Source: Botryllus schlosseri (taxonomy: Eukaryota). Taken from it: a DNA stretch of 64,000 nucleotides. The stretch spans positions 35,714,001-35,778,000 of the forward strand of contig CM119372.1 of NCBI GenBank assembly GCA_051294905.1, in the 5' to 3' direction. The position numbers and the translations under genes were made by a program. Below are positions 13,901 through 39,297 of this stretch, one piece after another. A model generated the notes under the pieces. It worked only from the letters and a program-made list of their open reading frames with translations, searched no databases and was not told where the DNA came from. The stretch's first letter is position 1. Each line of letters starts with the position of its first letter.

Positions 13901-14533
13901 AAATTGTGGCCTTCAAACCATTTGCTTACAATCCCCTGTCAAATGCGATAGCTATTTCATTTTCGATGTCGGCTAACAGCTGATCATTCGATCAGCCTAT
14001 TCCTCGATCTATTTTACTCAAAGTTCGGTGTTCGTCTGTTTGTATTGATTTTGACAGTGTACCATGCCGGAATGGGTTATGAGATTGCGAATGCTACTTC
14101 TCGATGATTTCATGTAACAGTATGCTAAGTTTACGGCTTTCATTCATGTATTTATTGATTAATATATTTTCCAACGGCGATTTGGCAGCAGACAGTAAGC
14201 CGTATGTGTTGCGTCACAATCTCCAGTTTCAAGGCCAAAATGTACTATGTTGTTCCGAGACCGAAGTTCCGAGGCTGCTGTCCTTAGTTCTTCAAAGACC
14301 ATTCAAATTGATGTTCTGGATTCAATATGACAGGCCCAATCTATGAGATAACAATTGCGTATGTGTCCGAAGTCGTTGACCTTTGCAGTTAGGCTTACGC
14401 AATCTCTCGAGTTCTAGTCATTGGAATTAGTCTGGTCAAGTCAAGTGCGAACATGAATCGTATTGAATCTTTGCTCCGTACGTAGGCTAGTTTACGCAGT
14501 TGCCTTTAGAGCGAAAATTAAAGGTCTAGAAGA

Positions 14534-14761
14534 CTACTCCTTGTCGCTTCGACATATTCCTGTCTTTTCATTGTATCGCATTTTTGTGGTGTATTGAACT
14601 GATAAAATTGCTAATAAACCAATGATGATGATGACAGAAATTGTCCAGTCCATTGATCCAATCGTACGCCGGGTACCTCCGCTTTGGTTGCCTATCACCT
14701 GGTCGTAACTCGTAACCACCAGCTCAGTGGTCGTAACACACCAGGATCGTGTACGAAACAC
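14534..14761 (-). CDS. Small putative single-pass membrane protein or env-like remnant
   Basis: Hydrophobic WTISVIIIIGLLAILSV followed by a charged tail; stop lies about 30 bp from the insert edge. Confidence 0.3.
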   Translation of the reverse strand: MFRTRSWCVTTTELVVTSYDQVIGNQSGGTRRTIGSMDWTISVIIIIGLLAILSVQYTTKMRYNEKTGICRSDKE

Positions 14762-15070
14762 TTTCGGACGGCATATCGATTTGCGTAATCTCTAACTCTA
14801 CCATGAAATCATAACGCATGCTACTAAGGATGACCTGATAATTGATTCGTGGCATAGGGACGATTCTTAGTTCACGTACATTATGTAAAATAATCCTTTG
14901 ATTAAAAAAAAATGAATAAAACATTTGGGATCACATGAACTATACGCCGTCATTTCCCGTACACAGGGAACACGAGTAAAACAATGTATCCCCATGTGCA
15001 TTAATGATCCCCTATGTACGGCCTTTTCTTCAGATGCCTTTTTCTTTTTGCACTCTCTCGAATGTCATTG

Positions 15071-15477: not shown

Positions 15478-15720
15478 TTAAACTCTGTCATTCTCCGTTG
15501 TGTTTCGTATTACTCTTATCGCCATCCATTGCTCTGCTCCGTTTCGTCTCCTCGTGTTCCTCATGCGACTTAAGGTACTACGTCGACGACACTTTATATA
15601 ACTTACCCATGTTACAATCAACGGAGCAATCAACCCTATTACCGCTACTAATTCAGTCACGTTTTCTAGGGTAGGTATCAACTTCGCACCTTCCATAATC
15701 ATCCTATCGATCAAGAACAA
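15478..15720 (-). CDS. Small putative membrane protein with a basic tail
   Basis: LVAVIGLIAPLIVTWVSYI followed by KCRRR and an Arg-rich tail; directly downstream of the protease ORF. Confidence 0.4.
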   Translation of the reverse strand: MFLIDRMIMEGAKLIPTLENVTELVAVIGLIAPLIVTWVSYIKCRRRSTLSRMRNTRRRNGAEQWMAIRVIRNTTENDRV

Positions 15721-15749
15721 TCCTCATACCTTATATTCACCTTCCATCA

Positions 15750-18113
15750 TCACCAGTCGTGCAGCCGTTGAGTATAGTTGTAGTCAACGAATTCTGTGGC
15801 TATCTTCTCCACGGTGGTTCTTGATAGTCGGGGACATTCAGGTACGGATGTTCCCACCCCTGGGTTTTTCTGCCCAGACAGTGGCAATGCGTCAACCGTT
15901 GTTGACGTCAAGGTAATGGTCATCAGCTCGACACTACTCGTGAATACGTCGTCCTTGTCGTCTCCTGATGAATACAAAATGGACGTTTCGGCACCTACCT
16001 TATTGCCGTCATCCATAGTTAGGTAGTGCGTTCCGATGCCGCTCCCGCCGTCATCCGTGAAGTTCTGCAGAGCGTCCGTAGTGGTAACCGGATGCACTGA
16101 CGTTTCTCTAGGCATTTCCACCATGATTTTCGTCATTCCGTCGGTTTGGTTTCGCGCGCGACGAGTTTGCAACTGTTGCTTCCCATGAGTCGCATCAGTT
16201 GGTTTGACATTTTCATTTTGTCCCCTTATTTTAACCATCGATCTTAATCGTTTAAAGGTTTTCGTCAGTTTTAGTTTTACAAAGCATGTCCACAGGTTTA
16301 ACAACAGTAACCGGTGTGGCCTCTTCCAGTTTTCTTTCTTCAAATCTAAGAGGGAGAGTACTTCTCTTCCTTGGGCTTCTTTCAATGCCTTCGCCTGGCC
16401 CTCCCCCTTCAAATTACAAGGTCCAGATACAAATGGTTTGGTCGAAGGGTCCTTAAGTTCGATGCCGCATCTGTATGCCATGGCGTGTGAGTAGCCGAGG
16501 TGACCACGCAGGTCCTCGAGTTCGGACGCAAACGGCGCGTAGAAGGCTTTCCAGACTTCATCAGAAATAATGGTATTTTCTGGAGTCGTCAGGTCAGGAG
16601 GTTTGTACGGGAGTTTGGCCAGCGCTACATATTGTACACAAATATCTTCAAGTTCCGTCATGACGCTTGAGTTAGTGTCTTTATGCAAAACATACGCAGT
16701 AACTGGTCCAGTCATGGGCTGGTGTGAGCCTCGTGATGATCGAGGTTTTGGTGTTGGTGGAGAGAGGGCGAGGTCCCTCGATGTAGGCCTCTGATCTCGG
16801 CGCGTGCCCGCGCCTACCGTCACGCCGATGGACTCCTTTTCCGCCGGGGACCCTATTTCTGGGGTGACGTGCATCTTAAAATCCCCAGACTCCTTGTCGG
16901 ACATGACTGGGCGTGTATCCGGTTGACCGGCAATAGCTGCTTTGTTTGAACCTTCTGGGAAAGTAATCATAACTGTGGCTGTCGTCATGCATCTATGGGC
17001 CGAATCATTACAGTTATTCGGACAAGTGCATCCACGAGAGCATTTAGGACCAGTTTTCTCGTGCAGGTCCTTATTTACGCCAGCGGACATTCCACGCTCG
17101 ACGTCAGCTGTAGTTGTCGCCATGCATCTATGGGCCGAAGTTCTGCAGTTCTTCGGACAAGTGCATCCGCGAGAGCTTTTGGGACCAGTTTTCTCGTGCA
17201 GGTCTGTATTTACGCCAGCGTGCATTCCACGCTCGACGTCAGCTGTAGTGGTCGCCATGCATCTATGGGCCGGATTTTTACATTTATCCGGACAAGTGCA
17301 TCCGCGAGAGTTTTTGGGACCAGTTTTCTCGTGCAGGTCCTTATCTACGCCAGCGGGCATTCCGCGCTCGACGTCTTCATTAACGGTGTCAGCAGGCATT
17401 CCTGCCTCGACACCAACAGTTTTCCATAGGTTCTGGGTGACGTTAGTTGTGATTTTCAACTCGTCGTTCGCACCAGTGGTGATTTCCATTTTGGTACTCG
17501 CGCCAGCGGTAATTTTCCGCTTCACGCTATCTTGGTTTGCAGCATCCATCAACCCATCGTCGATTGCAGTGTAGCTAATACCGCTTTCGACTTCGGTTCC
17601 CTTCCATTGATTGCACGGGTTCTCATCATGTAGTGTTACTAAAGACAACTCTCCATTTGCGTTAGACGGGGTTTTCAATTCCGTAACTATGCTTGGTAAT
17701 TGTTGGACTCGATCAATCCATTTTAAGCCAATTACATTGAGAGGGACTCCTTTCCCGGTCGCAAATGGAACCGGTAGTTCGTCAAAATCAATTACAACCA
17801 ATGAGTCAACGTGGGAGGAGCCCCCTATACCACGTAACTTCATATCTGAAGGTTGCCGTTCCTCCCAGCTCTTTGGATACATGGCTTTTACGATATTTTT
17901 CATAATTAGATTAGGTAGGCTTCCCGTGTCGGCCAAAAATGTCGTACCGGTTGTTGAATCAGTCAAGTACAAAAGCCGACCGCCGAATAACTCCGTGAAG
18001 TCTGGCTGTAGAGGGTTATCCGGTGTATTAAGGGGTAGAGAAGCGTTATGAACAATCTTTGCGGGTTGGGGTAATAAATTTTCTGGGAGCTGATTTACCG
18101 GATCAATCAGCAC
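15750..18113 (-). CDS. pol: Retropepsin-type protease / internally deleted pol, probably expressed by -1 frameshift from gag
   Basis: FLADTGS active site, LRGIGG flap, VIGLKWI motif; IELKDPSTKPF resembles the segment preceding RT, but no YxDD, RNase H or integrase motifs follow. Confidence 0.8.
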   Translation of the reverse strand: MLIDPVNQLPENLLPQPAKIVHNASLPLNTPDNPLQPDFTELFGGRLLYLTDSTTGTTFLADTGSLPNLIMKNIVKAMYPKSWEERQPSDMKLRGIGGSSHVDSLVVIDFDELPVPFATGKGVPLNVIGLKWIDRVQQLPSIVTELKTPSNANGELSLVTLHDENPCNQWKGTEVESGISYTAIDDGLMDAANQDSVKRKITAGASTKMEITTGANDELKITTNVTQNLWKTVGVEAGMPADTVNEDVERGMPAGVDKDLHEKTGPKNSRGCTCPDKCKNPAHRCMATTTADVERGMHAGVNTDLHEKTGPKSSRGCTCPKNCRTSAHRCMATTTADVERGMSAGVNKDLHEKTGPKCSRGCTCPNNCNDSAHRCMTTATVMITFPEGSNKAAIAGQPDTRPVMSDKESGDFKMHVTPEIGSPAEKESIGVTVGAGTRRDQRPTSRDLALSPPTPKPRSSRGSHQPMTGPVTAYVLHKDTNSSVMTELEDICVQYVALAKLPYKPPDLTTPENTIISDEVWKAFYAPFASELEDLRGHLGYSHAMAYRCGIELKDPSTKPFVSGPCNLKGEGQAKALKEAQGREVLSLLDLKKENWKRPHRLLLLNLWTCFVKLKLTKTFKRLRSMVKIRGQNENVKPTDATHGKQQLQTRRARNQTDGMTKIMVEMPRETSVHPVTTTDALQNFTDDGGSGIGTHYLTMDDGNKVGAETSILYSSGDDKDDVFTSSVELMTITLTSTTVDALPLSGQKNPGVGTSVPECPRLSRTTVEKIATEFVDYNYTQRLHDW
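16975..17375 (-). repeat. Three in-frame 135-bp (45-aa) Cys/His repeats
   Basis: CATGCATCTATGGGCC recurs at 16986, 17121 and 17256; peptide motif CTCPxxCxxxAHRC. Confidence 0.95.
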
Positions 18114-18128
18114 CCCCAGTCGTTTTTT
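18083..18128 (-). promoter_or_regulatory. Programmed -1 ribosomal frameshift signal (A AAA AAC plus stem-loop)
   Basis: Gag frame reads TCA AAA AAC GAC TGG GGG TGC TGA; the -1 frame is the protease ORF; downstream GGGGTGCTGATT can pair with AATCAGCTCCC. Confidence 0.85.
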
Positions 18129-20968
18129 GAGAGTCTCAACCCTTGTTCAAGTTCCTCATCCGTCCAGTGTGAGGCGTCATAGTGACGTGGCGGGCGTCGA
18201 AATAGCGGTTCCGTCCAGGCCACTTGGCTATTGCTTTGATTTGGCTGTGCAGACGGTCCCTGAGGACCCCATTGATCCTTATCATGCCAGTGAGTTCTAT
18301 CTCTATTTTTTGGCCTAGTGTCATAATAGGCTTCGCACAAGGCAGTTCTCTGTGTCAGCGAGGGAGAGCCTTGGGTGGCAAGGTATCGGTCGAGGTCCGG
18401 GACCGTCAGTATGTTATTCCTCGCAAGCAAAGGCCCCCAATCACGTTCAGCGGACTCCTTAACGCGAGTAGGTATTGGTTGTACTCGCTTGCGAACTACC
18501 CATCCCAAGGTATCATTCTTGGTAAGCACCTCCTCATTTAGCCGAAGTATGAATTTTGCCACGCAATTTCGGGATTGGTGTCCCGGGGCCTTACAGCAAA
18601 AACATACGGATAAGGACTGCCCCTGAGGAGGTTTCAGATATAAGCCTAGAGGGGCGAAGATGTTTGGGTTCCCAAGAAAATTATATCTCTCCCCTTGGCT
18701 CTCCGCGATGCGGAGGGCTTCCTGACTGCTTGATGGTGTGATTTCCTGGCCACCCCTGCCGATCCCAGAGTCCTGCGTCTTCGTCAGTTGAGGTGTCCGG
18801 TTCCAAGTACTTGGTCCCTGACTAGGTTGAGAAGACCTGGAGTTTCGCGTTGGTGTAACGTTGAGTCCATTCGATGCGTTGCGCACGTTTTGTGGTCGGG
18901 CAGGTTTAGCCCTGGGAGTCGGACCACGTCTGCCGAACCCATTGCCACTCATAACGTTGGTAAAAAAACGGTTGGTCTTGGTGCCGCGAGGAGGGTTACG
19001 TCGTGGCTGTGAAGCTTGCCCGACACCGACGAGCTGCCGTGGCCACATTTCCCCAGACGGTTCGGGTGGTGTCCCTCCGATCATGTGTAGAGGTGGTTTA
19101 GGTGAGGATGGTTGCACCATCAGAGGTGGTGTTATAATCGGTGGGGGAGGGGTGTTCAGTCGTCCATCTTCACTCCCGTGAGTAGGGTAACTGTGCATCA
19201 TGGGTCCTGCAGGCTGAACATAATATATGTGCACAGGTGGTAGGGGTGACATTGTCTTTCTGACCTCCCGAGAGGTGGAACGTACCTCTTGTTCATCCAA
19301 GAACTCAGAATTCCAGTACAGCTGTAAATCCTCCGCCACCTCTTGCCAAGACCTGCTATCCCATCCCCGCATCAGCAGCCTAAGTGCTTCTGGTAATCGT
19401 TGTCTTAGGTTGCGGAAGAGTCGCAGCCCATCCGGATTCTCTTTGATTTCAGCCTCCATATCTATCTCTAGTTGTTTTAGGGCACTATTCAACAGCGGAA
19501 GAGGTTCGTCTTCCCACTGATAATTCCTCCGGAAATCGTTGATGACCTTTTCATTGTTAACCAAGCCTTGCGGGTTGGATAGCGACAATGATTTCATGAC
19601 CGAGACCCATTTTGCATTTCCCGAGTTGGTATTGAAGAAATTCCCCAGCTGATTAGCTTGTTTGAGGCGACCTGCACTCCGCAACTTCTTCTGCATGGCA
19701 TTGGCCAGGATTATATCTGTATCGGTGTCGCCCTCGCCGTGTCGTATTCGTCTCATCGTATTAGCCATCCACTTTAGAAGGGGCATATCCCCTGGGTCCA
19801 TCATTAGCTGTAGCATCTCCTTTTCCGACTGGAACCTTTCGGGCGTAGTCAACACCGGGTTCACGGCATCATTCCGTGGTTGACCTCGCGGAAGTCTCGA
19901 CCTTCCTTCGCTTTCTCTTGGGGTAGATGCGTATCGAGGTAATCTGAGGTATTCAGAGATGTTTGACATATTCTCTTCGGGTTCGGTTGGGTTGGGCTGA
20001 CCAGAGTCTCGCTGAAGCGTCCGTGTGGTCTCCCGAATGGCCTCCCGTGCCGCCGCTATTTTCCTACCCAATCTGTCCAATTGGGCATCAGTATCTTCCC
20101 CCGAGTCGTCAGGGTCCTCGCCTCCGTCTTGTCGGTAGTTCGTTCTCCCTTCTTGAAAGGTAACGCGCCTCGTTGCACTGCCGGCCTCACCTTGTGTCCT
20201 GGCCCGGGTTCTCTCGGCGGTTCGTTGAACGTCGGTCCATGCCCCGAGCCGCTTTCGAGCGTGTGCATAGCCGTCGTCTGAATCGGTGACGGTCCCGTTT
20301 TCACTTAGCCGGAATAGACTGGGTGTATCGACTAGGTTCCCCCTTCGTCGTTCGGGGCGTGTCCCATTCCGAACCGGTAAACATGGAGTCGTTCCTGGAC
20401 GAGAATCAGATAGTGAATTCGGCTTGGAACCTGGCAACGCAGGGTAGACTGCCGTCACGGTATGGCAATCCAGGCCCTTCTGAACTGTAAGCGTGGGCAG
20501 GGGCGCTGTTGCCCTGGACGATTGCCCAACGAGCGGATCATACGCCGGTGGAGGTACTGTAGACATTACGGACAGAGAGGAAGGTGGCGGTGGTTTATCC
20601 CCAACCACTTGTGCATGGGCTTTGCCCAGCTCAAATTCTGATTTCAAGATCTCACTGAGGACGTCAGTGGAGACTTTCCCGCTGACCTTCGAAGTGGCAT
20701 CGCATACTGCTTTGAGGTGGACTTGAGCTCGCCTGCCTTCTTTCTTGGCCTTTTCCAGCCCTTTTTTTGTCTCGGGCAGAGTTGATTTGACTTCTTTTAG
20801 TACCTTTGTTTGATCAGCCACGTCTTTTGCCAGCTGTCTTTCTTGTTGTCTGACGTCTTCATGGCGTTTTTGCGTTGCTTTCAGCAGCTTGATACCCTGC
20901 TCGAGCTCGTCAGCCGCCTCTGACAGCTTCTTTTTCTTCTTCCTAAAAAATTTTAGCATTCTTCGCAT
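18107..20968 (-). CDS. gag: Gag-like polyprotein, 953 aa
   Basis: Uninterrupted ORF; CX2CX4HX4C knuckle (CFCCKAPGHQSRNC); probable helical capsid-like middle region; N-terminal RKKKKK and coiled coil; overlaps the protease ORF. Confidence 0.85.
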   Translation of the reverse strand: MRRMLKFFRKKKKKLSEAADELEQGIKLLKATQKRHEDVRQQERQLAKDVADQTKVLKEVKSTLPETKKGLEKAKKEGRRAQVHLKAVCDATSKVSGKVSTDVLSEILKSEFELGKAHAQVVGDKPPPPSSLSVMSTVPPPAYDPLVGQSSRATAPLPTLTVQKGLDCHTVTAVYPALPGSKPNSLSDSRPGTTPCLPVRNGTRPERRRGNLVDTPSLFRLSENGTVTDSDDGYAHARKRLGAWTDVQRTAERTRARTQGEAGSATRRVTFQEGRTNYRQDGGEDPDDSGEDTDAQLDRLGRKIAAAREAIRETTRTLQRDSGQPNPTEPEENMSNISEYLRLPRYASTPRESEGRSRLPRGQPRNDAVNPVLTTPERFQSEKEMLQLMMDPGDMPLLKWMANTMRRIRHGEGDTDTDIILANAMQKKLRSAGRLKQANQLGNFFNTNSGNAKWVSVMKSLSLSNPQGLVNNEKVINDFRRNYQWEDEPLPLLNSALKQLEIDMEAEIKENPDGLRLFRNLRQRLPEALRLLMRGWDSRSWQEVAEDLQLYWNSEFLDEQEVRSTSREVRKTMSPLPPVHIYYVQPAGPMMHSYPTHGSEDGRLNTPPPPIITPPLMVQPSSPKPPLHMIGGTPPEPSGEMWPRQLVGVGQASQPRRNPPRGTKTNRFFTNVMSGNGFGRRGPTPRAKPARPQNVRNASNGLNVTPTRNSRSSQPSQGPSTWNRTPQLTKTQDSGIGRGGQEITPSSSQEALRIAESQGERYNFLGNPNIFAPLGLYLKPPQGQSLSVCFCCKAPGHQSRNCVAKFILRLNEEVLTKNDTLGWVVRKRVQPIPTRVKESAERDWGPLLARNNILTVPDLDRYLATQGSPSLTQRTALCEAYYDTRPKNRDRTHWHDKDQWGPQGPSAQPNQSNSQVAWTEPLFRRPPRHYDASHWTDEELEQGLRLSKNDWGC

Positions 20969-21012
20969 AATTTATGTAAATTTTGATTGTCTGTATATTA
21001 GTTCCGTGCCTT

Positions 21013-21462
21013 TTACTGGCCAGGGTAAGTACCGTTCTGAGGTAAATTACTCACGGACGTGGTTGTGTTGTCCCCGATCACTCGTCCTTGCGTCGTGGGT
21101 ACGGAATGTCTTATAAAGATAACCGGGTCAGTTCTGTTGGTGATTACCACAGCAAATCCGTTATGTGGGACATGTAGTAGTTCGGTCGTTGTAGTGACGT
21201 CGTCAGAGAGACCTTCAGGAGTCTTCGTAGGATAGAATACCGGCGCAAGGTGTGCGTAGATCGATGCCAATATTATAAGCAGAGATATAACAGAAGTGAC
21301 TACCGTCACACTGAGCACAATTCTCACGAGGGTCGTCCTTGAGAATATCAAAAGGTCAATGTTTTTACACCGGAAGTATCCCAGTGGTGCCTCCATTTGT
21401 GTCTTTATAGTGCAGCTCCATAACGATTGGTATGCGAGTCGTCTACACTTGGTTCGGATCAC
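21013..21462 (-). CDS. Putative small membrane protein upstream of gag
   Basis: Long hydrophobic run LVRIVLSVTVVTSVISLLIILASIYA, Thr-rich tail with NRT/NTT/NGT sequons; start codon uncertain. Confidence 0.4.
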   Translation of the reverse strand: MIRTKCRRLAYQSLWSCTIKTQMEAPLGYFRCKNIDLLIFSRTTLVRIVLSVTVVTSVISLLIILASIYAHLAPVFYPTKTPEGLSDDVTTTTELLHVPHNGFAVVITNRTDPVIFIRHSVPTTQGRVIGDNTTTSVSNLPQNGTYPGQ

Positions 21463-21780
21463 TTCACGGCGAAGAATTGAACTTTTATTGCACTGTACTG
21501 TCCAGACGACGTCCGTGGACGTTGATTGAAGTAGCAGTAGTTGCAGTAGTGGTATCTTTCAGCATCAGACAATGACCCTTAGGTCCAGAGTTCTAAACTA
21601 GCCTTATATAACGTGTAATTAGGCCTTAATACAACCAAATACTCCAATCATTATCATGCAGACAGAATGAGGTATCTAAGCAAAACTCGGTTAATATTGG
21701 CATATAGAATATCCATCAAATATAACACAAGATAAAGCTTAAACCTATTCATTTTCATGCACGATTAAATGTATTTTAAA

Positions 21781-22007: not shown

Positions 22008-23729
22008 TTCATTTATGACATATCGCTACATTGTACACCATTCAATCACAATAGTCATGCACGAACTAATGTTTTCTGTTATATCTCTGGGTTCCTTTAG
22101 TATCGGTGTGTATAAGCTTTTTATTCATTCGTATGTACCGTGTCTCACAAACAATAGATTTGATTTACCACGAATCTTTAACTCTACACATGCTCCAATA
22201 AGGTAGAGGTTCCTAGCTTAGTCTAAGGGTGCGTAGCTAGTTATAACGCATAACTCCGGGAGGTTCCAACATTAAGGACTTTGTATCGTTGACCCGATTA
22301 ACATGGCCATATGCCAATTAAAGTGCACTTGTTGATACTACCCTTAACAAAGGTGTTGCTTATTCGAACACTGTTAGATACCCAGGGTCCCTTTCACGGG
22401 TTTCTGGAGAAATCCCTAACCATTTCTAATCCTAAACTTCTATCCCGCTAGGGTGAAGGGTCCCGACACTAATATAGGGCGTGGTCGGTGTATAACGCCT
22501 AATTAAAGCCTACAGGCGTAGTACTCGCTATAATGTTACTGTAGTAACAACCAATTATTCACACAATAAATGTTCACTAACCCATACACATATCTACGAC
22601 ATAAAATGTTAGCGCCATTTTAAAGCAACCTGATGGTATTGATCAAAGATACAGTAAAGGCAGTGCTTAAACAAAATGGCGTCACTATACAATATTACAT
22701 CAAAGTAACCCTCACATGAAAATACCAATGTCCTGTTATGACTCGCGCGTCTCGTCATCATGCCGCAGATTGATTCATGTCGTTGTTCGTCAACCGCATC
22801 TTCTCCGATCTCCGTCATGGTATGTTCAGGACATATTTGGCAACCGTTCGTTGGGGTACTTCGTCTCGTGCATCTATTTCGAAACCGATTTCTTCAACTC
22901 CCTTGCTGATGAAACGATTCTTCTGCGTATCTCTTCTTGATTTTGCAGCCATCTTGATCGTCTCTTCCCACCGTTATCTTTAACGTGAATTTTTGCGGGC
23001 TCTGTTTGGCACGTTCCAACCTTTGGTTCACTGGTCCTTGCTGAGCAGTGATTTTTAGTGCCGGATTTCTTCTTATTTCTTCTATTTCACTTCATTAAGC
23101 CCTAGATTCTATCGAGGGAAGCAGTTTTTCGGGACTGTCGAATAGTAATTTTATAGTTGGTACCACCAAGTCGTTTTTTAATGCCAATAGAATGTCCAGT
23201 CCATCTCGATATTCTCATGCCATTTCATCACTCCACCCAGTCTTATTATGGTCTTATTGAGAGCAAGTCATTAAGTTCTCGGCATGTTTTCCAGACGCTC
23301 TTCTTGTCATACAAGTTTTAGATACACTCGATGCGCACAGAGAGAACATTAAAACACACACATATCAGAATTTCGCGTCATTTGCTATCGTAACGTTGTC
23401 ACAATACAATAATTCGCATGCACGTACTGATCACGGTGCCATAAGTGCACTCGTAAGACACATCCATTTCGTGAAACGAATGTGCAAACAAGGCGGGTCT
23501 TATTCTAATGTCATACTCAATCATCGACACATCAGTTTCGAAAAACGAATGTGTGGACAAGTTCAACCATGGGTTACTTTTCTAAGGTCTTTATTTTAGC
23601 AGTACTGGCTTGAGGTATTCCTAATGTTATAGGCCTATTATTTCCGGTTATAATGTTCATTTTTATTCAACTTATGTAGTTCCATAGCCATTCACGACGT
23701 AGCTACGTTGTAAATCGCTATGGTAGTGA

Positions 23730-29000: not shown

Positions 29001-29344
29001 CCATATTTTTCGGTCGTTCATACGAAAGATCCAGAAGTGGGTGGTGTTATAAGTCTGTAGCTACGGAGAATTAACGAATAACATCGGCCCTGTGTAAATG
29101 AACACAGCGGTCGACAATCGCCATGAATACTGCAAAAGCAAAATCAACTATTCTATGCTCTTTCCGCGGCCTTTCTACAATTCACCTATTCAAATCCCAG
29201 TATAGCACATTGGTTTCCGGTTCTTTTTGTGGAAAACGGACACCTCGCAACCCTATAACTTACATCCTATTCAATTGTCAATTCGTACGCTCGATCATGA
29301 ATAATACTTATGAACAGGCCGTGTTGACCTGTCATATACTAGGA

Positions 29345-30227: not shown

Positions 30228-32974
30228 TGCCAGGAGCTCAAATATAGCTTATCATTTATTTTTTATTGCCATTTTTCATATCTATTCCTTAACCCCTCTG
30301 GCATCACCAAGGACTCCTATATTCACGGCGTAGAATGCTATATAGTGCATTTATTAGCCTATATCAAACGAAAGTCGCTAAACATGCAGTGTCTGCTTTG
30401 TGTATGATACGCTCCCATGTTTAATACGCACCCTTAAAATAGCATGCAAATTTTAGAAAGGCCTGCACCCATGTATATTACTTGTTCTGCGTCTCAATGG
30501 GCGAGTAGTTGCGATTTTAGGGTGCGCTATCATTGCGTATTTGCGATGCAGTTATTAAACGATCATTACTCAATCAGTGGAATATTCTTTGAACGATAGC
30601 AGATAGCAGCCAAAGCTCGCAAGGCCGGCAGAGCGATAGTTTCGGCTATCGACACTATATCTTGTACACGAGGTCCATGACAAGTGTGATAGGTCAGGCC
30701 AACGATTATGTCGTGCGTACCAGGCCTGCCGATGATGCGACCGATCGCGAAAGCATTTGTATCCCGCGTACATGGCATACTATATGTGCGATTGGGGGGG
30801 CCTGTCGTTGACGTGATGAATTGGCGATTACTGCCGCGTGCGCGCTGCGATCAGTCATAAAGAATCCGATAATTTAACTGCCTCAGTGTTTTGAGTTGGA
30901 CATCTTCTTAGTATACTTTACATAATAGCATCTTAGCTCATACAACGAAATGGTTTTTAGCTCAGAATTACCCTTTGCTGACCGCTATCAATTTTTTTAG
31001 CATACTCTCCACGCAAGGTCCGCTGCAACAATTCTATTCGCCTTGGGCACCTCAGAGCAAGATCGGGAAAGATCGGGAGCCACCTCAAGACGTACACCAA
31101 TCGTCCATTGATCCATACCACAGGTTTGTCTTACACAATTAGTGTTTAGTATTTGATATTTTCCTGGCAATGGCGCACAACATTAGATTGAAGACATAAT
31201 ATTTCAAAAGACACCCCCCATTAAAAAAAAACGCTGTTTAAAATACGTTTTGAACAAGGTGTTTCAAAATAACGCCTGATCCAAATGCAATCCCAACGGC
31301 AACGCCGATCAGTTACCACGGCAACAGGCGGGATAGCCAGTAGTGTAAAAATTGATCTGATTTTAATTGGCAATTTGACACTACCCATGACGCGGAAACA
31401 CGCATATGTGCGTGTTTACGCCCATATTTCCTTGCATTCACCATTCATTGCATTCATCTTCAGGGACCCTCAATGGTGTTCAATTTCTATAAAGTCTTGC
31501 GGTTCTATAGCGTTGAAATTCTATAGCTTTACAATTCTCACGGGTCGCTGTTTTTTTCCATTTGTACTATCGTCGTCATGTGTGGCATATGTAACTAATT
31601 TCGCCTAGTGCATGGTATTCGTCTAATAGATATCAGGTCCCAAACCCTAAATACAAAATACTTAAAACGCTTGACGCCTGTTAGTTAGCGAGTCCGCAAC
31701 ATCGCGCAAATGCCAACCAACCATCATTCTACCCCCCTCAACTAAACTGCATTGCGCGCATATCCACCAAATGTATATATATATATTTTTTTTCTTTTTG
31801 GCCCATAATAGTCTCGTAAACTATAGGTCGCGAAATAGGTTAGTATGTTTGTGTATATCCGCGAATTGACGTCATTCCTGCGCAAGGTGCACATCTACCC
31901 TGTGCGATCAAGTCATAATTAACAATTATCGGGAAATGGAGCAATACAGCTCCGACGTTGTTATCATAAGCAAACAATTGTCGCGATGTTAGATCCGGAA
32001 CCTCATTGTGATGTACGCCGGTAGGGGAATTCGATTAGAGATAGGGCTTCGGAGCTGGAGTCAGTTCTTTAGGGGTAGCGACGGCTTCGACGTATTTCAT
32101 AAGATGCCATTGTATATGTAATGACCATATCTGCTGAGTTAACATAATTCAACAGCAGGCCTTTTCCCCCCTTTGGCGCTATCGTTCCCGACTAACCATG
32201 TTCTTGGGGATTCAACAGCAAGGCAGTCGTATGTTCCATATTCAACTTTCATACATTAGTGCTGAACCTCGGTATGCGAATTTCGCCTGTGAATATTGTG
32301 GATATTCTGTATACCCGCAATTTCATCATCAGCACAACCTTATTGGCCAATTGTAACGTTAACGAGTACAGTGCCAGTGTTAAAACGCCGCATCAGAATT
32401 TTAATGCTGTATACTGTACAGCATTGGCACGAAGCAAAGTGGGTTCCAGTGCAACTATGACGTTAGCGACAACTGACAAGTACTCATTATATCGCCACAA
32501 GCCGGCACAGCGGCACCCATGTACCGTTGCCGCATCCGATTTTACTGACGGCCAACAGACTCCAGATTACTATAGATAACCAACTTACGGGTAAATTAAT
32601 CAAACTACTCAGAATTGCTTCACATGCCGCATGCGGTCTGCTGGCCTTATGCTCGACATCGCTATCCTAGGCCATCATTGTTCGAGAAATTGACAAGAAT
32701 AAGAAAAGTCGCGGTATGTCATGCTATAGCGTCTCAAAGTTTCCAAATTGCAACTGTGTTGATGACAGCATAATCTTTGCTCAGATTATAGAAGAACCTA
32801 CAAAAGAGCATGGCCCAAAGTACAGTCCTTCAACTGCTGCTGAAGTTTTGATGAAGCCCTCTTCATTCAGGCAGTTGCTGACTGATGATATCCACAAGAA
32901 AGACTGGATTCCCGTCATTATCCACACTTACTTTTTTTTTTTTTACGTGTTCCCGCACCAAATAAACCTGATTC

Positions 32975-33381
32975 AAATTTACTGGTCTCAGGAGCTTAAA
33001 ACTGCTGCAAGGGACCAGACGAGTATATTGATATTACAGTAGATTCCTGTTACCTTTAGTTACGGAAATTTTCCGTAAAACTTCCTACGGTCAGCATATG
33101 TAAAATCATATTACGGGGAGAGTTATTTCGAATTTACTGGTCTCATCAGCGTAAAACTGCTGCACTGGACCAGACCACTAACTTGGTATTACAGCCGTTT
33201 TCCGTTACATCAGGTAACGGGAATTTTTCCGTAAAAACTTTAACAGTCAATCTTTGTAAAAAATAAATTACGGTCAATAATATTTTATGGGAAAATATTT
33301 TTCAAATTCACCGGTCTCAGAGTCGTAAAACTGCTGCCAAGACCAGACCAGTAATTTGGCATAGAATATTCTCAACAGTGT
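32975..33381. repeat. Three degenerate ~155-175-bp tandem units, probably MITE-derived
   Basis: AATTTACTGGTCTCA...TAAAACTGCTGC...GACCAGAC recurs at about 32976, 33131 and 33305. Confidence 0.65.
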
Positions 33382-36300
33382 ATTTCATCGTTGACGATCT
33401 TTCTGTGAGCACAAACGCGAAAATAAACCCTCTCTCGCAATTGCTCATCGGCTAAATCCGGCACTTTTTCATTTTCAGATGGGGCAGTCTCCAGAGAAAA
33501 AAATCGTGTGACAATTAAACACGTGAAGCACGAAGAACGATTTCACCACTTTTTTAGTCTATTGCAATGTACGACGATTTACCAAAAATGTGACTGCTAG
33601 ACCCTCGATCTGCCAATGCGTATGAGTTGACATTTCAGTCATCATCATCCAAGTGTCGCGGCCACGCCGACTATATTTTTGGCTGGCCCTGCGAGCCCAC
33701 AATCTGAGCCATTCAATTTTGATAATAATATATTGAAAGTTAGCTCGCGCGCTACTCAAACCCACTCGCGGGTCACATATGGTGTTTACGTACATTTGTC
33801 ACTCACACCCATGCTAGTAGGTGTGATCAAATATTGCACCGTTCTTTCATGCAACTATGAAGATTTTCTCCCTTTTAAAAAAATTAGTTTTGTGCTTTGA
33901 TTTTCCAAAACTTGACCTTTGGAGTGTGGAATCTGTGTCGGTCAGGAACCCGGATAAAAGAACAGGGATGCGACAAGTGTGCACTGCTAAATGTATCCTT
34001 GTGGAAAATTTAGCCGAATCATAATGCTGCTCACCGTATAAGAAGTGAGCACCCATCTGCTGAAGTAAGCTATAGGTTGTATAGGGTATTGTCTTTCGAG
34101 GGTGAACTATCAATTGGAACGCGTGGTTTTGCCCACTTTATTGTTGTTCGTATCTCTAAATTATACGGTCTGTGCGCCGGCATCAGATATATCATTGACG
34201 AGAATCTCAAATTCGTTGATTTTTTTGACCGCCGCAAGATCCAGATCGGTTGCAATACAGCACCTGGAACGGGTATCGCAAAGCAACTCACGTTAGTGAT
34301 TTAGTTAGCTAGCTATTGCTCCGCAACCTTCGAATGACGCGTAATGAAATAGGTATGGTCCAAATGAATGGTACTGAATCATCTTCGACGTGACGTCGAA
34401 TTGGCATTACATTTTATAGTAATGGTTTTTGATGTAATTTTCCCTATTCTCTGATTTAAATTAAAATTAGTGTTATAGCTTCAAGGTTTTCTGTTCCAAG
34501 TCAACCTAGAAATTAGGGTTGCAGCTGCAGTTATATATATATATATTTTTTTTAAACTTAGATTGTATTTGTAATAACTATATTTCCAATATTACAACTC
34601 CGAAACTTAATCTTGTTCAGTTCATGTCAAATCATGTTCAGTCTACCAGTCAATCAGGTCCATCAGTTTATTCCTATAAGCACGAGATTGACGAATGTCT
34701 CAACAGTAAGTCTCGCTTGTTTTTCACTACGCAGTGTCCCCGCATTATCTCCAGAAACGCCGGGAACCAAATCAGAATCAATATCAGGGAACAAAATCAG
34801 AATTAATATCAGAGCTTGAATTCATTTCGCAAATTAGATCAGAATTAGATTACCGTATGAGCACTCCGCTCCAATAAGACTAAAATTTACTAGCTATCCA
34901 AGTCTACCCAATCAGAGTGATGTCACCGTTTTTGTGTCGCCACCGACATCGATCGTACGTAGGCTAAACGTTTTCATTCTTTATTTTTTGTTAGCCCTAT
35001 ATGTTTTTCATTATTACAGTTTGCGTGACCTAATTCCGTATGTTGAAGTCCCCGTGTCAGAACGAAGTCAGAAATCGTTACGTGTTTGCAGCCTGTGATC
35101 TGTAAACTAAAAAAAATCTCTGCCGCGCGATTATCTGTGACACGAGATCCGATATCAAACGTTTGCGAATGTAATTCAGGACAATCCCGAGAAGAACGAA
35201 GGTAAAGAGGCTCCCGACAATCCAAGGGACAGGGAAGACAAGCTGGACGAAGCGGCCCACAAGCGAAGATCAAAACTACAGGCCACTCAGGATTTTCTGC
35301 ATTTCAACTGGGAGGTAACGTGTTATAAATTTTACTATGACTCCCGATCCCTGGCTCAAGGTGCGATTTTCAAAAGATCAGAGGTGTGACCGCAAATTCG
35401 AATTCTTCATTATGCAGTACAACATTTCCCGAACCCTTTCGACTTGTAGTTTTTCGTTGACTCCAAAAATCACCTCCCAAACAGTAGCGGTCAAAATTGA
35501 CCGAGCGCTTCTCCCCACAGCACTTAAGTAGGTTTATCTACTAATTTCACATACCCGAGCGGTCCCTTTATTTATACTACCTATGCGTAGTAATAATTTT
35601 TAAGACTCACCTCGAGCAGCAAAACACTATTTTTTGTGAGTACCGTAAACCGGGGCAACTTTGGACATTAAATAGTAAAAGGTTACGGTCGCTAAATTAT
35701 AGTTTTACGGCGGAATGTGGCCGTACGACCGCGAGTACCCTTGGCACCCTTGGTCTGACCGAATTCAGGATGAACACTTGAGCAATGCTGCAACGTATTG
35801 GGAATGCTAAACACGAATCTGAGCTGTAGCGGTGATTTCCTCAAGAATCATTAGACAGATATCGCAAGCTGAGCACATGCTAGCTCCACCCTGTGTCAAA
35901 GAGAACTTCGAAGTCCATGACCATAGGTTAAATGATGAGAAACATTTGCTTACGGCCTCACACTTTAAGATATTACACATCCAGTCAACCTGCCCTGAAG
36001 CATAAACCGGCGTATTTATTGTGATAACTATATAGTCACCGACTTCTCGGTTCATTTGCGGATCCGGTACATCCCACTACACCCCATCCGAGTGGTACAC
36101 CCCCTTTTAAATATATTATGGTACACCCTGAGGTGTGCGAAAACCCCGGTTGGAGATCACTGCCTTAGACGATTCGAGGTGCCATGGCACGCTACGCTGC
36201 ATAGCATAGTGTAATTTTAGATCTAATAAAAAGGTATCTGAGCATAGCAACAACAACTTACACACTTTACAGCGCGAGGGGATAAACACTTTGATGTATT

Positions 36301-39297
36301 TTAAGGCAGGTATAGTATGAGGCGATTGCGAAAAACAGTAGCTCCAATCACAGGGTAGGGCGGTACGAAATTTGATTATTTATTTGCTACAAATTAACTC
36401 CCGAATTTTTGGTAGGTATCGATAAATTTTAAGGTTTTCTTCGCACCGCTCCCGAGTCAATATGACTTCATTTTCGATTTTAATATAGTTTGGCCCTTAG
36501 TGATTATATCCCTACATTACAGATACGGGCAGCAGAGGGAGATGATGCACGCCATATAGAAACACAAGTTGGACTCGTGTACCCCTCACTGCAACTACAA
36601 TCTTGATAGGAAACTCCAGGTCAGTGCAACTTCTGTATCCTGTTTGCCCCCTCAATAAATTATGTAGCAGACAACCAACACTTTAACCACACAAATCTAC
36701 GTTAACGAGTTATCTGACCCAAACACAACTCCAAAAGCGAACATTCAAACAGTACTAAAGAGTTGCGCAAACCTTCTCGCCCCCAACTAATACTATCGAG
36801 AAATATCTTTATTACTTATCTCTCTATTAACAGTATAGTTTGTCCTGCCACGCGATTTTTGGTTATTTCGTCGTGCAACACCTCTAAAATATTTTTTAGA
36901 CCCGTTATTGCAGTACCTTTTGTAAATAACATATATTAATAGGAATACGACAGACATGCATACTGACTTTGGATCAGTTCGCCATTTACGGTGTTCTGCG
37001 ACGTGCTGTGTTCATTGAAAATCATCATCTCTAGTTCTGCGATTTCTGATCCGATTGGCAGAGCCAGTTTGCTGGTAGTTGACGACAAGATCGCCGTGTC
37101 GTCCCTCGGATCAATTGTTGTTGGTCCAGATGTGCTATTTGCTGATGAAATTGAAGTGGTTATTTTGGTACTTACCTTTCGATCATGCTGTTGGGTTTGG
37201 CGATCCGGCCCGGTGATGAAGAGGTGCGTATTCGTCACATAGTACGGCTCTGTTTCGATTGTTCTTCCAGCCCGTTTTATTTCCATCACATCTACGCGGC
37301 GTTGCATTGATATTGTGCGTCGATGATTTACGCGCAATGGTTGCGTATAGGGCTTGGTTTTTAGGTTAATTTCGAACGTCTCTAGTAGTCGTTTCTAAGG
37401 CATTTTTTACACTTCATTTTTCGCACCAATAGTCCGTGCTCTCTTAGAAACCGTACGTAATCACCTACGTTGGGCAACGCTCCCGCTTGAATTGATCGCA
37501 ATACGTTGTATGTCCTTCCATGAACGCCTACGTAAGCTAAATGGTAGGGCATGTGCAGGTTTTCGCTTTTCGGGTATCTGCTGTTTCTTGTGGGGAAACG
37601 CCATTTTTTTTCAACAGCGCGTCGCTAGACGGTTCTCTCCTATCTGTTTCCGTGCTATGGTTAGGCAGGGCGTATAATTTACTTGCTCCATATGAGATCT
37701 AGTGAATTTAAAAACCTTCATTTCAACGTTCATGTACAGCACACATCTTATTAAAGTGAAACATTCACACTCCTATCGCACACCCACAATTCAGTGTTCC
37801 ACACTGGCGCCGTCTCTATTTACGGCGCTTACTACACTTGAACCAACATTTGTTACCACACTTCAAGTCACGGCTCACCGGCAAACCTCTCGCGGCACCT
37901 ACGTTAAAATCACTGTTGTCGTGAAATTCATGTGACCATCATATTAAAGTTACTTTTTTACGTTGGAAAACGCCATTGTGACGTCATGTTGATAAAAGTC
38001 GCTCGCAGCCCTTGCCCCACCACCCGATATTGTTACGAGCCGCCACTGTATTCGACCATGTTTTCCAGAAAAAGCAGTGTCGGACAAATCTTATCATGAA
38101 TTATTTTGATAAAGCCATATTTAATGCGTGTCTCGCTTATTGGCTACAGTACCCAACACAGTGATCTTGGATATGTAAAAACAATCGCAGGATTTTTTTC
38201 CAATAAATTCAATAAATAATACATACATATTAACAGATAGCTCTGGCCCCGTATGTCGACCCAAAATTTACCTTCAAGGGCAAAAATCTGTGTTACAGTA
38301 ACTTGCAACTGTGAGTCTGTAATGATGGTATTTACTACTATCCTCGTGCCTCGAAAATATGAAAATATGATGATTGTTTAGCAAAAGAAAGCAGAAAGTC
38401 ATTTTGACGCCATTATTCCAGCCTGTCGCAGGTGGCTCATGATGGGCTGATATACGGTATGTCTGCCCCTAAAGAGATTGCAGAGATCTCTATACTGCCA
38501 CTACACCAGCTTCCAAACCAGGCTTTTGATTACGTAATAATTATAGTGCAGGATTTGTGAGAGCTACGATGAGCGACGTGTCGTATCAAGTTTATACAAT
38601 TGCGTCGCAACTACAAATGTTACACTGATCTTAAAGTAAACAATTACGGTAATCATGATTTTCATTCGCCCTTGATCCAGATTTTCATTCGCACCGTTCG
38701 CACCACCTTCGTCATTCGCACTTGATCCGGATTTTCATTCGCACTATTCGCACCACCTTCGTCATTCGCACTGCAATTTTTTTCATTCGCACCAGTGCGA
38801 ACCGTCACACAGGTTGAAAAGCACTGGTGTATCACTTTTGACTCAAAAGACCCCCGCTTCCAGATAAATCCGAATCGCAATTTAACGTACCAAATCCCAA
38901 CGTCCTCGTTTTTAGTTAAATGCAGATTAAACGCCAGATTACGACCAAACAGATAGGCACATGTAAATGCCAATTCCGTTGTTTACGATTAAAGGTGTTT
39001 CTAGAATAGAAAGAATCCCATATGACCCGTAATATAATGTGATACGCAATTATGTATATGGGCTTGATAGTAAAGTATCCAAGTGATAAACAAGGGCATG
39101 GCATTTGAGTTAACATTTTGGAATCATGTGACCGGTCCGACCGGCAAGCGATCTGAAGGTTTGAATCCCGCCCGCGACTCAAGTTTAGTTTGACACACCT
39201 GATATAAATAAATGAATGGCTATACGAGTAAATATGGCATTTGATGAATATTACAGTTGCTGTCGATTACATATTGAGATGACAGGTATTGTTCATT

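Follow-up and report, generated by a model that had tools for sequence, protein, structure and literature searches.

What kind of mobile element carried a retrovirus-like gag gene into a hAT-like repeat of Botryllus schlosseri, and by which enzyme was it integrated? Transposable elements fall into two classes, one moving by an RNA route with a reverse transcriptase (RT) and the other by a DNA route with a transposase, and the orders of retroelements are defined by their integration enzyme, which may be an integrase, a tyrosine recombinase, or one of several endonucleases. The locus discussed here, within a 64,000-nucleotide stretch of DNA (the window, in whose positions all coordinates are given), combines features from both sides of this division. 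Our preferred answer, which we regard as probably correct, is that window positions 14928-37844 are a non-autonomous copy, young and internally deleted, from a family of giant elements belonging to the Merlin superfamily, and that this copy was moved as DNA by a transposase supplied in trans.

A preliminary description of the window had placed an insert at 14505..37851. The insert is real and its right edge had been located to within 7 bp, but the left edge was wrong: the element runs from 14928 to 37844 (22,917 bp), and its genes read on the minus strand. A perfect 8-bp duplication, AACATTTG, stands on either side of it (14920..14927 and 37845..37852), and the element is nested within a 2.4-kb hAT-like repeat ("TE-X"). 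The left (12689..14919, plus strand) and right (37853..38048, plus strand) parts of this 2.43-kb repeat are contiguous at two other loci, L034 and L035, where the counterpart of 14927 is followed at once by that of 37845 and the sequence beyond it; these loci contain AACATTTG once and are thus the empty site. The host repeat has its own CAGTGGCGGC inverted termini and 8-bp duplications in 3/3 copies. Because window positions 14200-14935 were unbroken in 27 of 40 scored genomic matches (99% identity) and because of the structure of L034 and L035, we assign 14505-14927 to a younger subfamily of the host repeat. The older hAT "copy 1", which had been proposed as the empty site, simply does not have this segment and therefore cannot serve as one. 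The letters themselves had been read correctly, as CGCAGTTACCACAC is present at 4421 and the junctions at 14504/14505 and 37851/37852 are as described. The features drawn from them did not survive, namely a 6-bp duplication with one mismatch (GTTGCC/GTTACC) or a shared GTT core, which give way to the 8-bp AACATTTG, and an insert beginning and ending with TTT, which is without meaning. The host repeat also lies within a larger stretch that is duplicated in the window.

The termini defined in this way recur across the genome. The terminus at the 3' end of the gene-bearing minus strand (14928..14967, plus strand) starts with GGATCAC, a start that was identical in 9/9 copies, and the terminus at the 5' end of that strand (37805..37844, plus strand) starts with GGTTCAAG when read on the minus strand. 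They are the arms of an imperfect inverted repeat, agreeing at 15 of the first 24 positions and at 18/40 overall; GG starts both ends, and the termini are common to all copies. Allowing up to three mismatches, 23 genomic matches were found for the 14928 terminus and 31 for the 37844 terminus, while the reversed controls gave 0. The 8-bp duplications were perfect in 16 of the 17 copies checked and all mutually different (the 17th has one mismatch), with A at position 2 in 15/17 and T at position 7 in 16/17. Judged by the terminus counts against the reversed controls and by the perfect duplications, the boundaries are more than chance.

The 17 copies are located on 12 contigs with unique flanks, and copies of the family range from 12 to 74 kb. 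All of this evidence comes from one genome; copies C11, C8, C9, C13, and C2 are known from partial sequence, and C6 (25.4 kb) was read fully. Although the window lineage lacks both RT and transposase, it includes nine other copies at 97-99% identity. Copies that are nearly identical (97-100%) are told apart by large internal deletions, and they have in common the nested repeats within 13-30 kb of non-coding sequence. The reported absence of terminal direct repeats was upheld by self-BLAST of the window, in which neither this search nor a repeat finder identified LTRs or split repeats, and no long terminal direct repeats were found in the fully read C6 copy.

The window copy retains part of a retrovirus-like gene set. 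As had been described, its co-oriented minus-strand ORFs include a C2H2 zinc-finger ORF, a hydrophobic ORF, a gag-like ORF, and a protease frame. The gag-like ORF (18107..20968, minus strand, 953 aa) is intact, with a coiled coil at its N-terminus, helices in its middle part, and a CCHC knuckle (18563-18604) whose residues C789, C792, H797, and C802 were invariant across 12 sequences. Of 30 loci, 22 have this frame open over at least 941 aa, and dN/dS was 0.08-0.37 across 10 comparisons. Homologues were found only in Styela clava and two further contigs, and the ORF had no Pfam gag match. An AlphaFold model built with 12 sequences was poor (pLDDT 42), and the language-model neighbours of gag are leads only. 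A slippery heptamer, A AAA AAC (18122..18128, minus strand), lies 13 nt ahead of the stop codon of gag, in frame with that gene, with the protease frame overlapping at -1. The upstream position of gag and this site fit a gag of retroviral type, as read from the sequence. A small ORF of 127 aa with one hydrophobic segment (21013..21396, minus strand) precedes gag, at a position conserved in other lineages.

The protease belongs to a chimeric frame of 798 codons (15753..18146, minus strand), in which the protease, three Cys-motif repeats, and an N-terminal stub of RT are fused by a deletion to the tail of ORF4. Residues 1-602 match residues 4-531 of the pol of the C1 lineage and residues 642-797 match ORF4 residues 803-957 (51%, E 1e-35); the frame had no Pfam RT match. 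The retroviral-type aspartic protease itself (17637..18011, minus strand) has LADTGS, with the D of DTG at about 17930, and a GIGG flap. It is homologous, at 34-35% identity, to the protease regions of the PR-RT-RH-KptA proteins P0011 and P0013, and a search for longer homologues of the protease ORF found none. A remnant of ORF4, comprising the membrane anchor and tail of a mucin-like glycoprotein, follows in a different frame (15487..15756, minus strand) and was identified when the C-terminal 120 residues of ORF4 from the C1 lineage served as a tblastn query (69% over 90 aa, E 8e-37). On the other side of gag, the C2H2 zinc-finger ORF (24587..24919, minus strand; Pfam zf-C2H2, E 1e-10 to 1e-11) is cut at 24654 by an internal deletion, such that array sequence makes up its last ~22 codons; in the C11 copy, the frame runs on through additional fingers. 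The RT, RNase H, KptA/Tpt1 domain, env, transposase (apart from a 53-residue stub), and about 14 kb of other DNA are absent from the window copy.

The junction of the internal deletion lies at 24653..24654. About 13.7 kb of C11 is absent here, as is 12-15 kb present in the C4, C8, C9, and C13 copies. The array (23723..24666) consists of 12 units of ~80 bp and is found at the same position in diverged lineages, and further repeats of ~57 bp are located at 21780-22008. Three repeat sets had been described as putative structured-RNA arrays. The sets are present, but this reading was not borne out, as there were 0 Rfam matches and 8/10 unit folds had |z| <1. The Rfam search for ribozymes or other structured RNA covered termini and arrays at E up to 1, and the |z| values mean that these folds were no better than those of shuffles. 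The set at 16973-17377 was rejected as an RNA array since it is coding: its three 135-nt tandem repeats (16973..17377, minus strand) lie within the pol frame, where they specify a recurring Cys/His motif. The non-coding 5' region (24654..37393) contains nested high-copy repeats at 29345-30227 and 32600-33383 and is 92-100% identical to the C11, C8, C9, C13, C4, C1, and C2 copies. It may once have been host DNA, as the preliminary description allowed, but in those copies too it belongs to the element. Among 107 ORFs of at least 55 aa in the window (21400-37900 and 14900-15760), the zinc-finger ORF was the sole Pfam match above cut-off. Pfam likewise identified no enzyme in 75 ORFs of at least 60 aa from C4, or in the 22 of 43 ORFs that lie past position 4299 of the extra segment of C11, the first part of which equals C4.

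Fuller relatives carry the missing parts, which bears out the earlier suggestion of a deleted copy of a giant, multi-copy family with retrovirus-like genes. Other gag copies are likewise accompanied by this array and lie within giant elements of this type; ordinary LTR-bounded elements had been set beforehand as the outcome that would speak against that suggestion, and this is not what was observed. Relatives with homologous termini encode gag, a PR-RT-RNaseH-KptA pol, a class-I-fusion-like env, and a mucin-like glycoprotein, and no integrase. The pol frames (1165-1234 aa) contain RVT_1 (E 3e-18), RT_RNaseH_2 (E 2e-18), and PTS_2-RNA, with Ty3 RT and Gag-Pol among the PDB matches, and were without internal stop in 54 of 61 matches. 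The order in relatives is gag, protease, RT, RNase H, of which the window copy keeps gag and protease only. Sequence features and a language-model lead make env look like a class-I fusion protein; a search for its homologues gave one partial match only. In lineages whose pol identity is only 52-100%, gag, pol, env, and transposase are open together.

The enzyme that accompanies these genes is of Merlin type. ORF1 of the C6 copy, adjoining the 5' terminus, matches PF12762 (DDE_Tnp_IS1595) at E 2e-10 and 41 bits against a cut-off of 27, and two further transposase paralogues match at 50 and 63 bits; the NCBIfam IS1595 transposase match (E 1e-17) scored 64 bits, below the NCBIfam cut-off of 75. 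D, D, and E residues are invariant across the three paralogues. We scored 119 of 198 candidate genomic matches to the transposase, most of them with open frames of 317-352 aa. Fuller relatives have one or two Merlin/IS1595-type DDE transposases per element. The C2 copy (59.6 kb), with a perfect duplication and almost the same termini, has both an open 329-aa transposase and an open 1172-aa pol. The window copy retains a stub at 37394..37552 (minus strand), equivalent to residues 19-71 (tblastn 57% over 53 aa, E 6e-15) and also found in the C11 and C1 copies, and because only these 53 residues remain it is a non-autonomous member. No integrase (rve) or tyrosine recombinase was matched in 229 ORFs or ORF pieces searched with Pfam, C6 pol included. 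An 8-bp duplication alone would also suit a hAT element, but this superfamily was rejected, as the transposase found is of the IS1595 type and none of the scanned ORFs has a hAT domain. In the C1 copy, the transposase lies in the pol frame after a single TAG, where retroviruses have their integrase. The spacing between pol and transposase gives the same frame in 4/6 copies of the C1 lineage, in which there is no start codon before the conserved transposase N-terminus.

Evidence that bears on RNA comes from a short motif and from sequencing reads. About 650 nt upstream of gag, a 25-nt segment (21625..21649, minus strand) is a copy of what looks like the spliced leader of the host: in RNA reads the template-switch oligo stands directly 5' of the 25 nt and diverse sequence stands 3', the segment has 282 genomic matches at one mismatch or less (control 0), and at one locus GTAAGC follows it. 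In two diverged lineages, 24 of the 25 positions are kept at the same place. Sense transcription was seen in two RNA runs, both 3'-biased single-cell libraries, and since the reads differ from the window copy at fixed positions this is evidence at the level of the family. In the contig runs X11 and X19, RNA is not distinguishable from DNA. Over the 870 nt that lead up to the 3' terminus, neither AATAAA nor ATTAAA occurs, and no end-to-end RNA was seen in these 3'-biased libraries.

In the reading that we prefer, the window copy would have moved as double-stranded DNA, with the transposase of its relatives recognising the shared termini and making an 8-bp staggered cut. Against this reading, no transposase was found in the window copy or in the examined parts of its closest relatives, C4 and C11, so the supply in trans is inferred; the inverted repeat is poor, the IS1595 match falls short of the NCBIfam cut-off, the RNA reads speak for the family rather than for this copy, and a single genome provides all of the evidence. 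Internal deletions such as that at 24653..24654 may arise as in other cut-and-paste families. The deletion variants that are 97-100% identical, and the nine near copies of a window lineage without RT or transposase, are pointers to movement as DNA. The gag dN/dS and the pol matches without internal stop suggest that the retrovirus-like genes are under selection; they would be kept for the spread of the family, for example through particle formation, and not for integrating this copy. Also against this reading, the intact frameshift site, the transposase that follows pol in frame after a TAG, and the embedded leader copy are hints that both RNA and reverse transcription matter in the family.

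Taken further, these hints lead to a family that spreads like a retrovirus, the window copy included: RNA packaged by gag would be reverse transcribed by pol and integrated by the Merlin-type transposase as a read-through fusion with pol, the window copy being complemented in trans for RT and transposase. Such a cycle accords with the order gag-pol-[transposase]-env, the C1 transposase in the pol frame past one TAG, the same frame in 4/6 copies of that lineage without a transposase start codon, the A-AAA-AAC site, the lack of integrase in all scanned ORFs, a pol intact in 54/61 matches, and a spliced-leader copy fixed upstream of gag in three lineages. It is nevertheless unlikely, as reverse transcription would have no terminal direct repeats with which to restore the ends, copies attain lengths of 40-74 kb and hold nested repeats in extended non-coding stretches, and neither a ribozyme nor a tRNA-like primer site was found; the end-to-end RNA that was not seen is a weaker point, the libraries being 3'-biased. 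If instead an ordinary Merlin transposon had swallowed a dead retrotransposon and junk, the retroviral genes would be passengers without a role. The Merlin features, the largely non-coding cargo of the window lineage, and the continued mobility of the window copy after loss of RT and env agree with this. The joint openness of gag, pol, env, and transposase across lineages at 52-100% pol identity, the gag dN/dS of 0.08-0.37, and a pol without integrase in every copy read, with the transposase in its place and frame in one lineage, make it very unlikely.

The gag and protease of the window copy and the RT/RNase H of its relatives, of the Ty3, caulimovirus, and retrovirus kind, could also belong to an LTR- or DIRS-type retroelement whose terminal repeats were overlooked. 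LTR retrotransposons make target duplications of 4-6 bp, and DIRS elements have a tyrosine recombinase, split direct termini, and no target duplication. Here the termini are inverted and GG-ended, the duplication is fixed at 8 bp rather than 4-6 bp or none, direct terminal repeats were not found, and integrase and tyrosine recombinase are absent from the 229 ORFs or ORF pieces, so we consider an overlooked-repeat element highly improbable. The tyrosine-recombinase route with its trinucleotide junctions, raised in the preliminary description, finds no support, given the same termini and duplication and the Merlin/IS1595-type DDE transposases encoded by complete relatives. The duplicated region around the host repeat might suggest a segmental duplication or an assembly error, which is a negligible prospect given that the 17 copies are spread over 12 contigs, each copy with unique flanking sequence and a duplication of its own, and that the empty site occurs elsewhere.

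Beyond the origin of this copy, the family joins what marks a cut-and-paste DNA transposon (its ends, its duplication, and its enzyme) to a complete, integrase-less, retrovirus-like gene set, and the two halves have been held together through deep divergence in one genome. We tentatively propose, at somewhat less than even confidence, a new order of reverse-transcribing, enveloped, virus-like chordate elements, in which a read-through Merlin/IS1595 transposase would replace integrase, GG inverted termini and 8-bp duplications would replace LTRs, and KptA/Tpt1 and a fixed spliced leader would act in an undescribed replication cycle, the window copy being a defective parasite of complete ones. 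If reverse transcription is involved in spread, a retrovirus-like agent would here have a new solution to integration, in the invertebrates most closely related to vertebrates. If reverse transcription plays no part, the family would be a reverse-transcribing counterpart of Teratorn, a virus having given up its own integration for that of a transposon, and its members, up to 74 kb with intact duplications, would be among the largest elements that look cut-and-paste. The RT-fused KptA/Tpt1 and the embedded spliced leader offer new handles on RNA handling by such elements. Where the boundaries are not known, such elements will be mis-annotated as broken LTR elements and unrelated Merlin copies.

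Full-text searches of the literature outside subscription journals, Repbase entries, and supplements found neither a Merlin/IS1595 transposase joined with gag, RT, or env nor KptA/Tpt1 joined with retroelements. Ordinary Merlins are a few kb long, whereas this family spans 12-74 kb with up to two diverged transposase paralogues per element, an N-terminal CxxC...CxxC motif in the transposase, and the gag, PR-RT-RNaseH-KptA pol, and env set. The likeness to Merlin lies in the DDE_Tnp_IS1595 transposase, the 8-bp duplication, and the imperfect 5'-GG inverted termini; passages of PMC8101967, which cites Feschotte 2004, describe the superfamily, which is related to bacterial IS1016/IS1595 and known from ascidians, as having this transposase, 8- or 9-bp duplications, and inverted termini with 5'-GG. 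DIRS elements resemble the family in having retroelement genes without classical LTRs or integrase, but no tyrosine recombinase was found in the family, and its duplication is fixed at 8 bp and its termini inverted. Polintons/Mavericks are likewise large and virus-like with inverted termini and a DDE-type integration enzyme; the retroviral-type integrase, protein-primed DNA polymerase, and jelly-roll capsids attributed to them in passages of a review (PMC10175614) were not found in the family.

Two further systems offer parallels. Animal errantiviruses, including those of tunicates, are env-carrying Ty3/gypsy elements that passages of PMC13524379 describe as LTR-flanked and integrase-encoding, with an F-type env and many near-identical copies in tunicates. 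Our family shares gag, a pol with Ty3-type RT/RNase H (a kinship drawn from domain and PDB matches), an env of putative fusion-glycoprotein type, and many near-identical copies, but has no LTRs or integrase; it has instead the Merlin transposase and 8-bp duplication, and it adds KptA/Tpt1 to pol and a second, mucin-like glycoprotein. Teratorn of medaka is a piggyBac transposon fused with a herpesvirus (PMC5601938). Passages of PMC10175614 call it the first case in which a DNA virus and a cut-and-paste transposon have fused; the word Merlin is absent from that review, and no transposon-retrovirus fusion is named in those passages. As in Teratorn, an entire set of virus-like genes travels as one giant mobile unit between the termini, and with the transposase, of a cut-and-paste element; in place of piggyBac and a DNA virus, the partners here are Merlin and a reverse-transcribing one.

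The window holds a real insert of 22,917 bp at 14928-37844, with AACATTTG duplicated at both flanks. These limits follow from two genomic loci (L034 and L035) that run uninterrupted through the site, the equivalent of 14927 joining directly to 37845 onward, and from the finding that 14505-14927 is part of the younger subfamily of the host repeat that carries the insertion. The preliminary description was right that there is an insert here, and its junction sequences read as described in the window, but its left edge (14505) and its target duplication were wrong, and the older copy of the host repeat is not the empty site for which it was taken. When positions 14200-15800 were compared with the 495-Mb animal genome, 27 of the 40 scored matches spanned 14200-14935 unbroken at 99% identity, 12 began at approximately 14923-14926 and are other copies of the insert, and the remaining one was the window itself.

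The host repeat is hAT-like and 2.43 kb long; inverted termini (CAGTGGCGGC) and 8-bp duplications were seen in all three copies examined. It is very young and non-autonomous (12689-14927 plus 37845-38048 in the window; L034 and L035), and at least 27 of its copies share 99% identity; in the older copy, at 1084-4628, an internal segment of 423 bp is missing and an additional 1.6 kb is present. The surroundings are segmentally duplicated, with 1084-9029 matching 12692-14482 plus 37852-46000, and 38821-40814 matching 45978-46709 and 52991-54181. Rhodopsin-type receptor genes are present in the window in several copies (7tm_1, E 2e-13 for 39298-40056), and a degenerate CCCTAA-like array, a telomere-type repeat lying inside the contig (62018-62262), adjoins 180-bp repeats and a 104-nt inverted repeat at 61739-62939.

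The insert is a transposed unit. Both ends were read for 17 copies on 12 contigs, and the termini were the same throughout. Perfect 8-bp duplications, each of a different sequence, flanked 16 of the 17 copies, with one older copy off by one base; duplication position 2 was A in 15 and position 7 was T in 16. The two termini, each beginning with GG, match poorly as an inverted repeat (15 matches in the first 24 positions, 18/40 overall). Searches that allowed up to three mismatches located 23 and 31 genomic occurrences of them, against 0 for reversed controls. The 17 copies measure 11.8, 15.9, 19.0, 22.9 (the window copy), 23.2, 25.4, 34.1, 39.8, 41.6, 42.1, 42.4, 43.2, 43.3, 45.0, 48.1, 59.6, and 74.2 kb. 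Self-comparison and a repeat search of the window copy found no terminal direct repeats. Among the 61 matches listed of 136 candidates for the gag region (40 scored), at least nine other full-length copies were 97-99% identical and at least eight were 89-91% identical, and more distant copies were also present.

The window copy carries all its genes on the minus strand. Read from the 5' end, its first gene is a transposase gene reduced to a 53-residue stub (37394-37552), which is followed by about 12.7 kb without a recognizable gene, in which two high-copy repeats are nested; a C2H2 zinc-finger ORF truncated at 24654; an array of 12 80-bp units; a spliced-leader-like 25-nt sequence (21625-21649); a small hydrophobic ORF; and a gag-like ORF of 953 aa with an invariant CCHC knuckle, whose nearest named homologues are uncharacterized Styela clava (ascidian) proteins. 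The gag stop is preceded, at a distance of 13 nt, by a slippery heptamer (A AAA AAC), and the following frame is at -1. That frame, of 798 codons, starts with a retroviral-type aspartic protease and is a chimera created by deletion: its residues 1-602 match the pol of a relative from the protease to the start of the reverse transcriptase (RT), and its residues 642-797 match, in frame, the tail of the mucin-like glycoprotein gene of a relative. The membrane anchor of that glycoprotein gene comes after the chimera in a different frame. The C11 copy is 100% identical to the window copy as printed over the shared segments. Relative to C11, the window copy is missing some 13.7 kb that there separates the array from the zinc-finger gene; this segment, read in C4 and C11, had no Pfam match besides further zinc fingers. 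The nested repeats lie at 29345-30227 (~880 bp) and 32600-33383 (~780 bp). The second is present in the window, C11, C9, C1, C8, C2, and C4 and absent in C13, C3, and C6, so it tags a sub-lineage that acquired this repeat and then spread.

More complete relatives retain the genes that the window copy has lost. The 25.4-kb C6 copy is flanked by a perfect duplication (GAAATATC); its terminus is identical to the window 5' terminus at 21 of 24 positions, and its 3' end is similar. From its 5' terminus, it encodes a 339-codon frame with DDE_Tnp_IS1595; a 558-codon frame with many N-glycosylation motifs, ending in a basic RHRR site with a hydrophobic stretch behind it; a 311-codon frame, separated from the preceding one by a single stop, that has a coiled coil, a membrane anchor, and a tail; a 1511-codon frame whose N-domain is a paralogue of the 558-codon frame and which also has about 800 Ser/Thr/Pro-rich residues and a membrane anchor; small ORFs, an array, and gag (988 aa); and a 1234-aa pol comprising protease, Cys repeats, RVT_1, RT_RNaseH_2, and PTS_2-RNA (KptA/Tpt1). 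The 5' terminus, transposase, gag, and pol had the same order and spacing in seven C6-lineage copies. The PTS_2-RNA domain scored 28.8 bits against a cut-off of 26; the NCBIfam match (E 3e-12) fell under that library's cut-offs, and a PDB sequence search matched a probable RNA 2'-phosphotransferase (8tfi, E 1e-7). The best RT matches in the PDB search were an "Enzymatic polyprotein" (8r0s), the foamy-virus PR-RT, and the Ty3 RT. In the C6 pol (L053:1-2211) and in 60 further genomic matches, the KptA/Tpt1 domain stands behind both RT/RNase H and an H..H...C..C motif, at the position of the integrase core in retroviral pol. Three distant proteins from other assemblies (P0011, P0013, and P0015) share the PR-RT-RH-KptA order.

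In the C1 lineage, whose gag has 89% DNA identity to that of the window, the order is a second transposase paralogue (40% identical), an array, gag, and pol (1165 aa); then, in the pol frame behind a single TAG, the first transposase paralogue; and then env as a single frame of 872 codons (a fusion of the 558- and 311-codon frames), the mucin-like gene, and the 3' terminus. The pol-frame transposase has a conserved N-terminus upstream of its first ATG, and by coordinates the two frames are in register in 4/6 C1-lineage copies. The C1 order (L056+L014+L057, C1:24283001-24308390) is a circular permutation of the C6 order (L054+L055+L052+L053, C6:8050801-8084000): C6 has transposase, env, and mucin gene ahead of gag-pol, and C1 has gag-pol ahead of transposase, env, and mucin gene. 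The termini are homologous in both lineages. The window lineage derives from the C1-type arrangement through a deletion that removed everything between the RT start and the tail of the mucin gene.

The second transposase paralogue, only ~40% identical to the first, occurs in many elements. Upstream of it at one C1-lineage locus, in a copy for which no 5' terminus was found, is a 379-codon leucine-rich-repeat ORF (L056:2495-3631; LRR_8, E 1e-56), which might be cargo or else a host gene from the flank. The 59.6-kb C2 element (C2:32310329-32369902) shares the non-coding 5' region of the window copy (29.8-37.4 kb) at 92-99%, and its gag is only 72% identical to the window gag; these mosaic identities suggest an exchange of modules between lineages.

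With the transposase as query, 119 of 198 genome-wide candidates were scored, and these matches fall into identity classes of 92-100, 71-77, 57-69, 38-43, and ~30%; 54 of the 61 scored matches to RT-RH-KptA (52-100% identity) had no internal stop. Gag was open over at least 941 aa in 22 of 30 loci, with dN/dS of 0.08-0.37 between the window copy and ten other copies. No integrase, tyrosine recombinase, or hAT domain was found in any Pfam scan of the ORFs of the window and the relatives.

The repeat sets had been proposed as structured-RNA arrays, a reading that we do not retain. The 135-nt repeats are coding. The 80-bp array keeps the same position in diverged lineages; it folded no better than shuffles in 8/10 tests and had no Rfam match, and putative protein binding sites seem more likely than structured RNA.

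The 25-mer looks like a spliced leader in its sequence context: in RNA runs, the template-switch oligo stands directly before it and diverse sequences follow. It has 282 genomic matches at no more than one mismatch (control 0), and at one locus (L061) it is followed by GTAAGC, a splice-donor consensus. Ascidian spliced leaders look similar, and we infer that the 25-mer is that of the host. Inside the element, ordinary sequence comes after it. Three diverged lineages of the element have a fixed copy ~650 nt upstream of gag; in C6 and C1 the copy at this location retains 24/25 positions, and the DNA adjoining it is only ~80% identical.

The window lineage has lost both transposase and RT, yet it has ten copies at 97-100% identity. 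It would have moved as DNA, using transposase made elsewhere; a candidate source is the C2 element, which differs from the window copy by one base in each terminus and has open transposase and pol frames. Copies that are almost identical apart from large internal deletions, and that have nested repeats in common, are easier to reconcile with movement as DNA than with an RNA intermediate of 40 kb. There is nonetheless a hint of a real retroviral-type step, that is, reverse transcription, in the family. The frameshift site, the transposase at the position of the missing integrase, the conserved env, and purifying selection all point toward such a step. Against it stands the lack of direct repeats from which the ends could be restored, and neither a ribozyme nor a primer-like RNA motif was found. 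The embedded 25-mer may also bear on the role of reverse transcription. Sense-strand reads from two single-cell RNA runs with the same species label covered 15097-16284 and 20740-22521; all differ from the window copy at fixed positions and therefore demonstrate transcription of relatives, not of the window copy.

Merlin elements are defined in one published account by inverted termini of 24-462 bp with terminal 5'-GG, 8- or 9-bp duplications, and a DDE_Tnp_IS1595 transposase, and are known there from ascidians among other animals (PMC8101967). The family has all three features; the window copy has both structural ones and keeps the transposase gene only as a stub. On this basis we class the window copy as non-autonomous and place it in a new, giant branch of Merlin. 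The family unites two classes of mobile element. The earlier idea of a deleted copy from a giant, undescribed virus-like family survives, but not that of an LTR-less retroelement of the DIRS kind; the window copy does not qualify as an LTR, DIRS, or hAT element.

In the full-text literature, Repbase, subscription journals, and supplements aside, we found no description of a Merlin/IS1595 transposase linked with gag, RT, or env and, within the same limits, none of KptA/Tpt1 domains in retroelements. A 2023 review of Teratorn covers, in the passages available, giant elements and transposon-virus fusions; the word Merlin is absent from the review, and those passages name no retrovirus fusion (PMC10175614). 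The words transposase and Tpt1 are absent from a 2026 survey of envelope-carrying Ty3/gypsy elements, which describes tunicate elements with LTRs and integrase (PMC13524379). The present family, with neither LTRs nor integrase, differs from these tunicate envelope-carrying elements, which have both.
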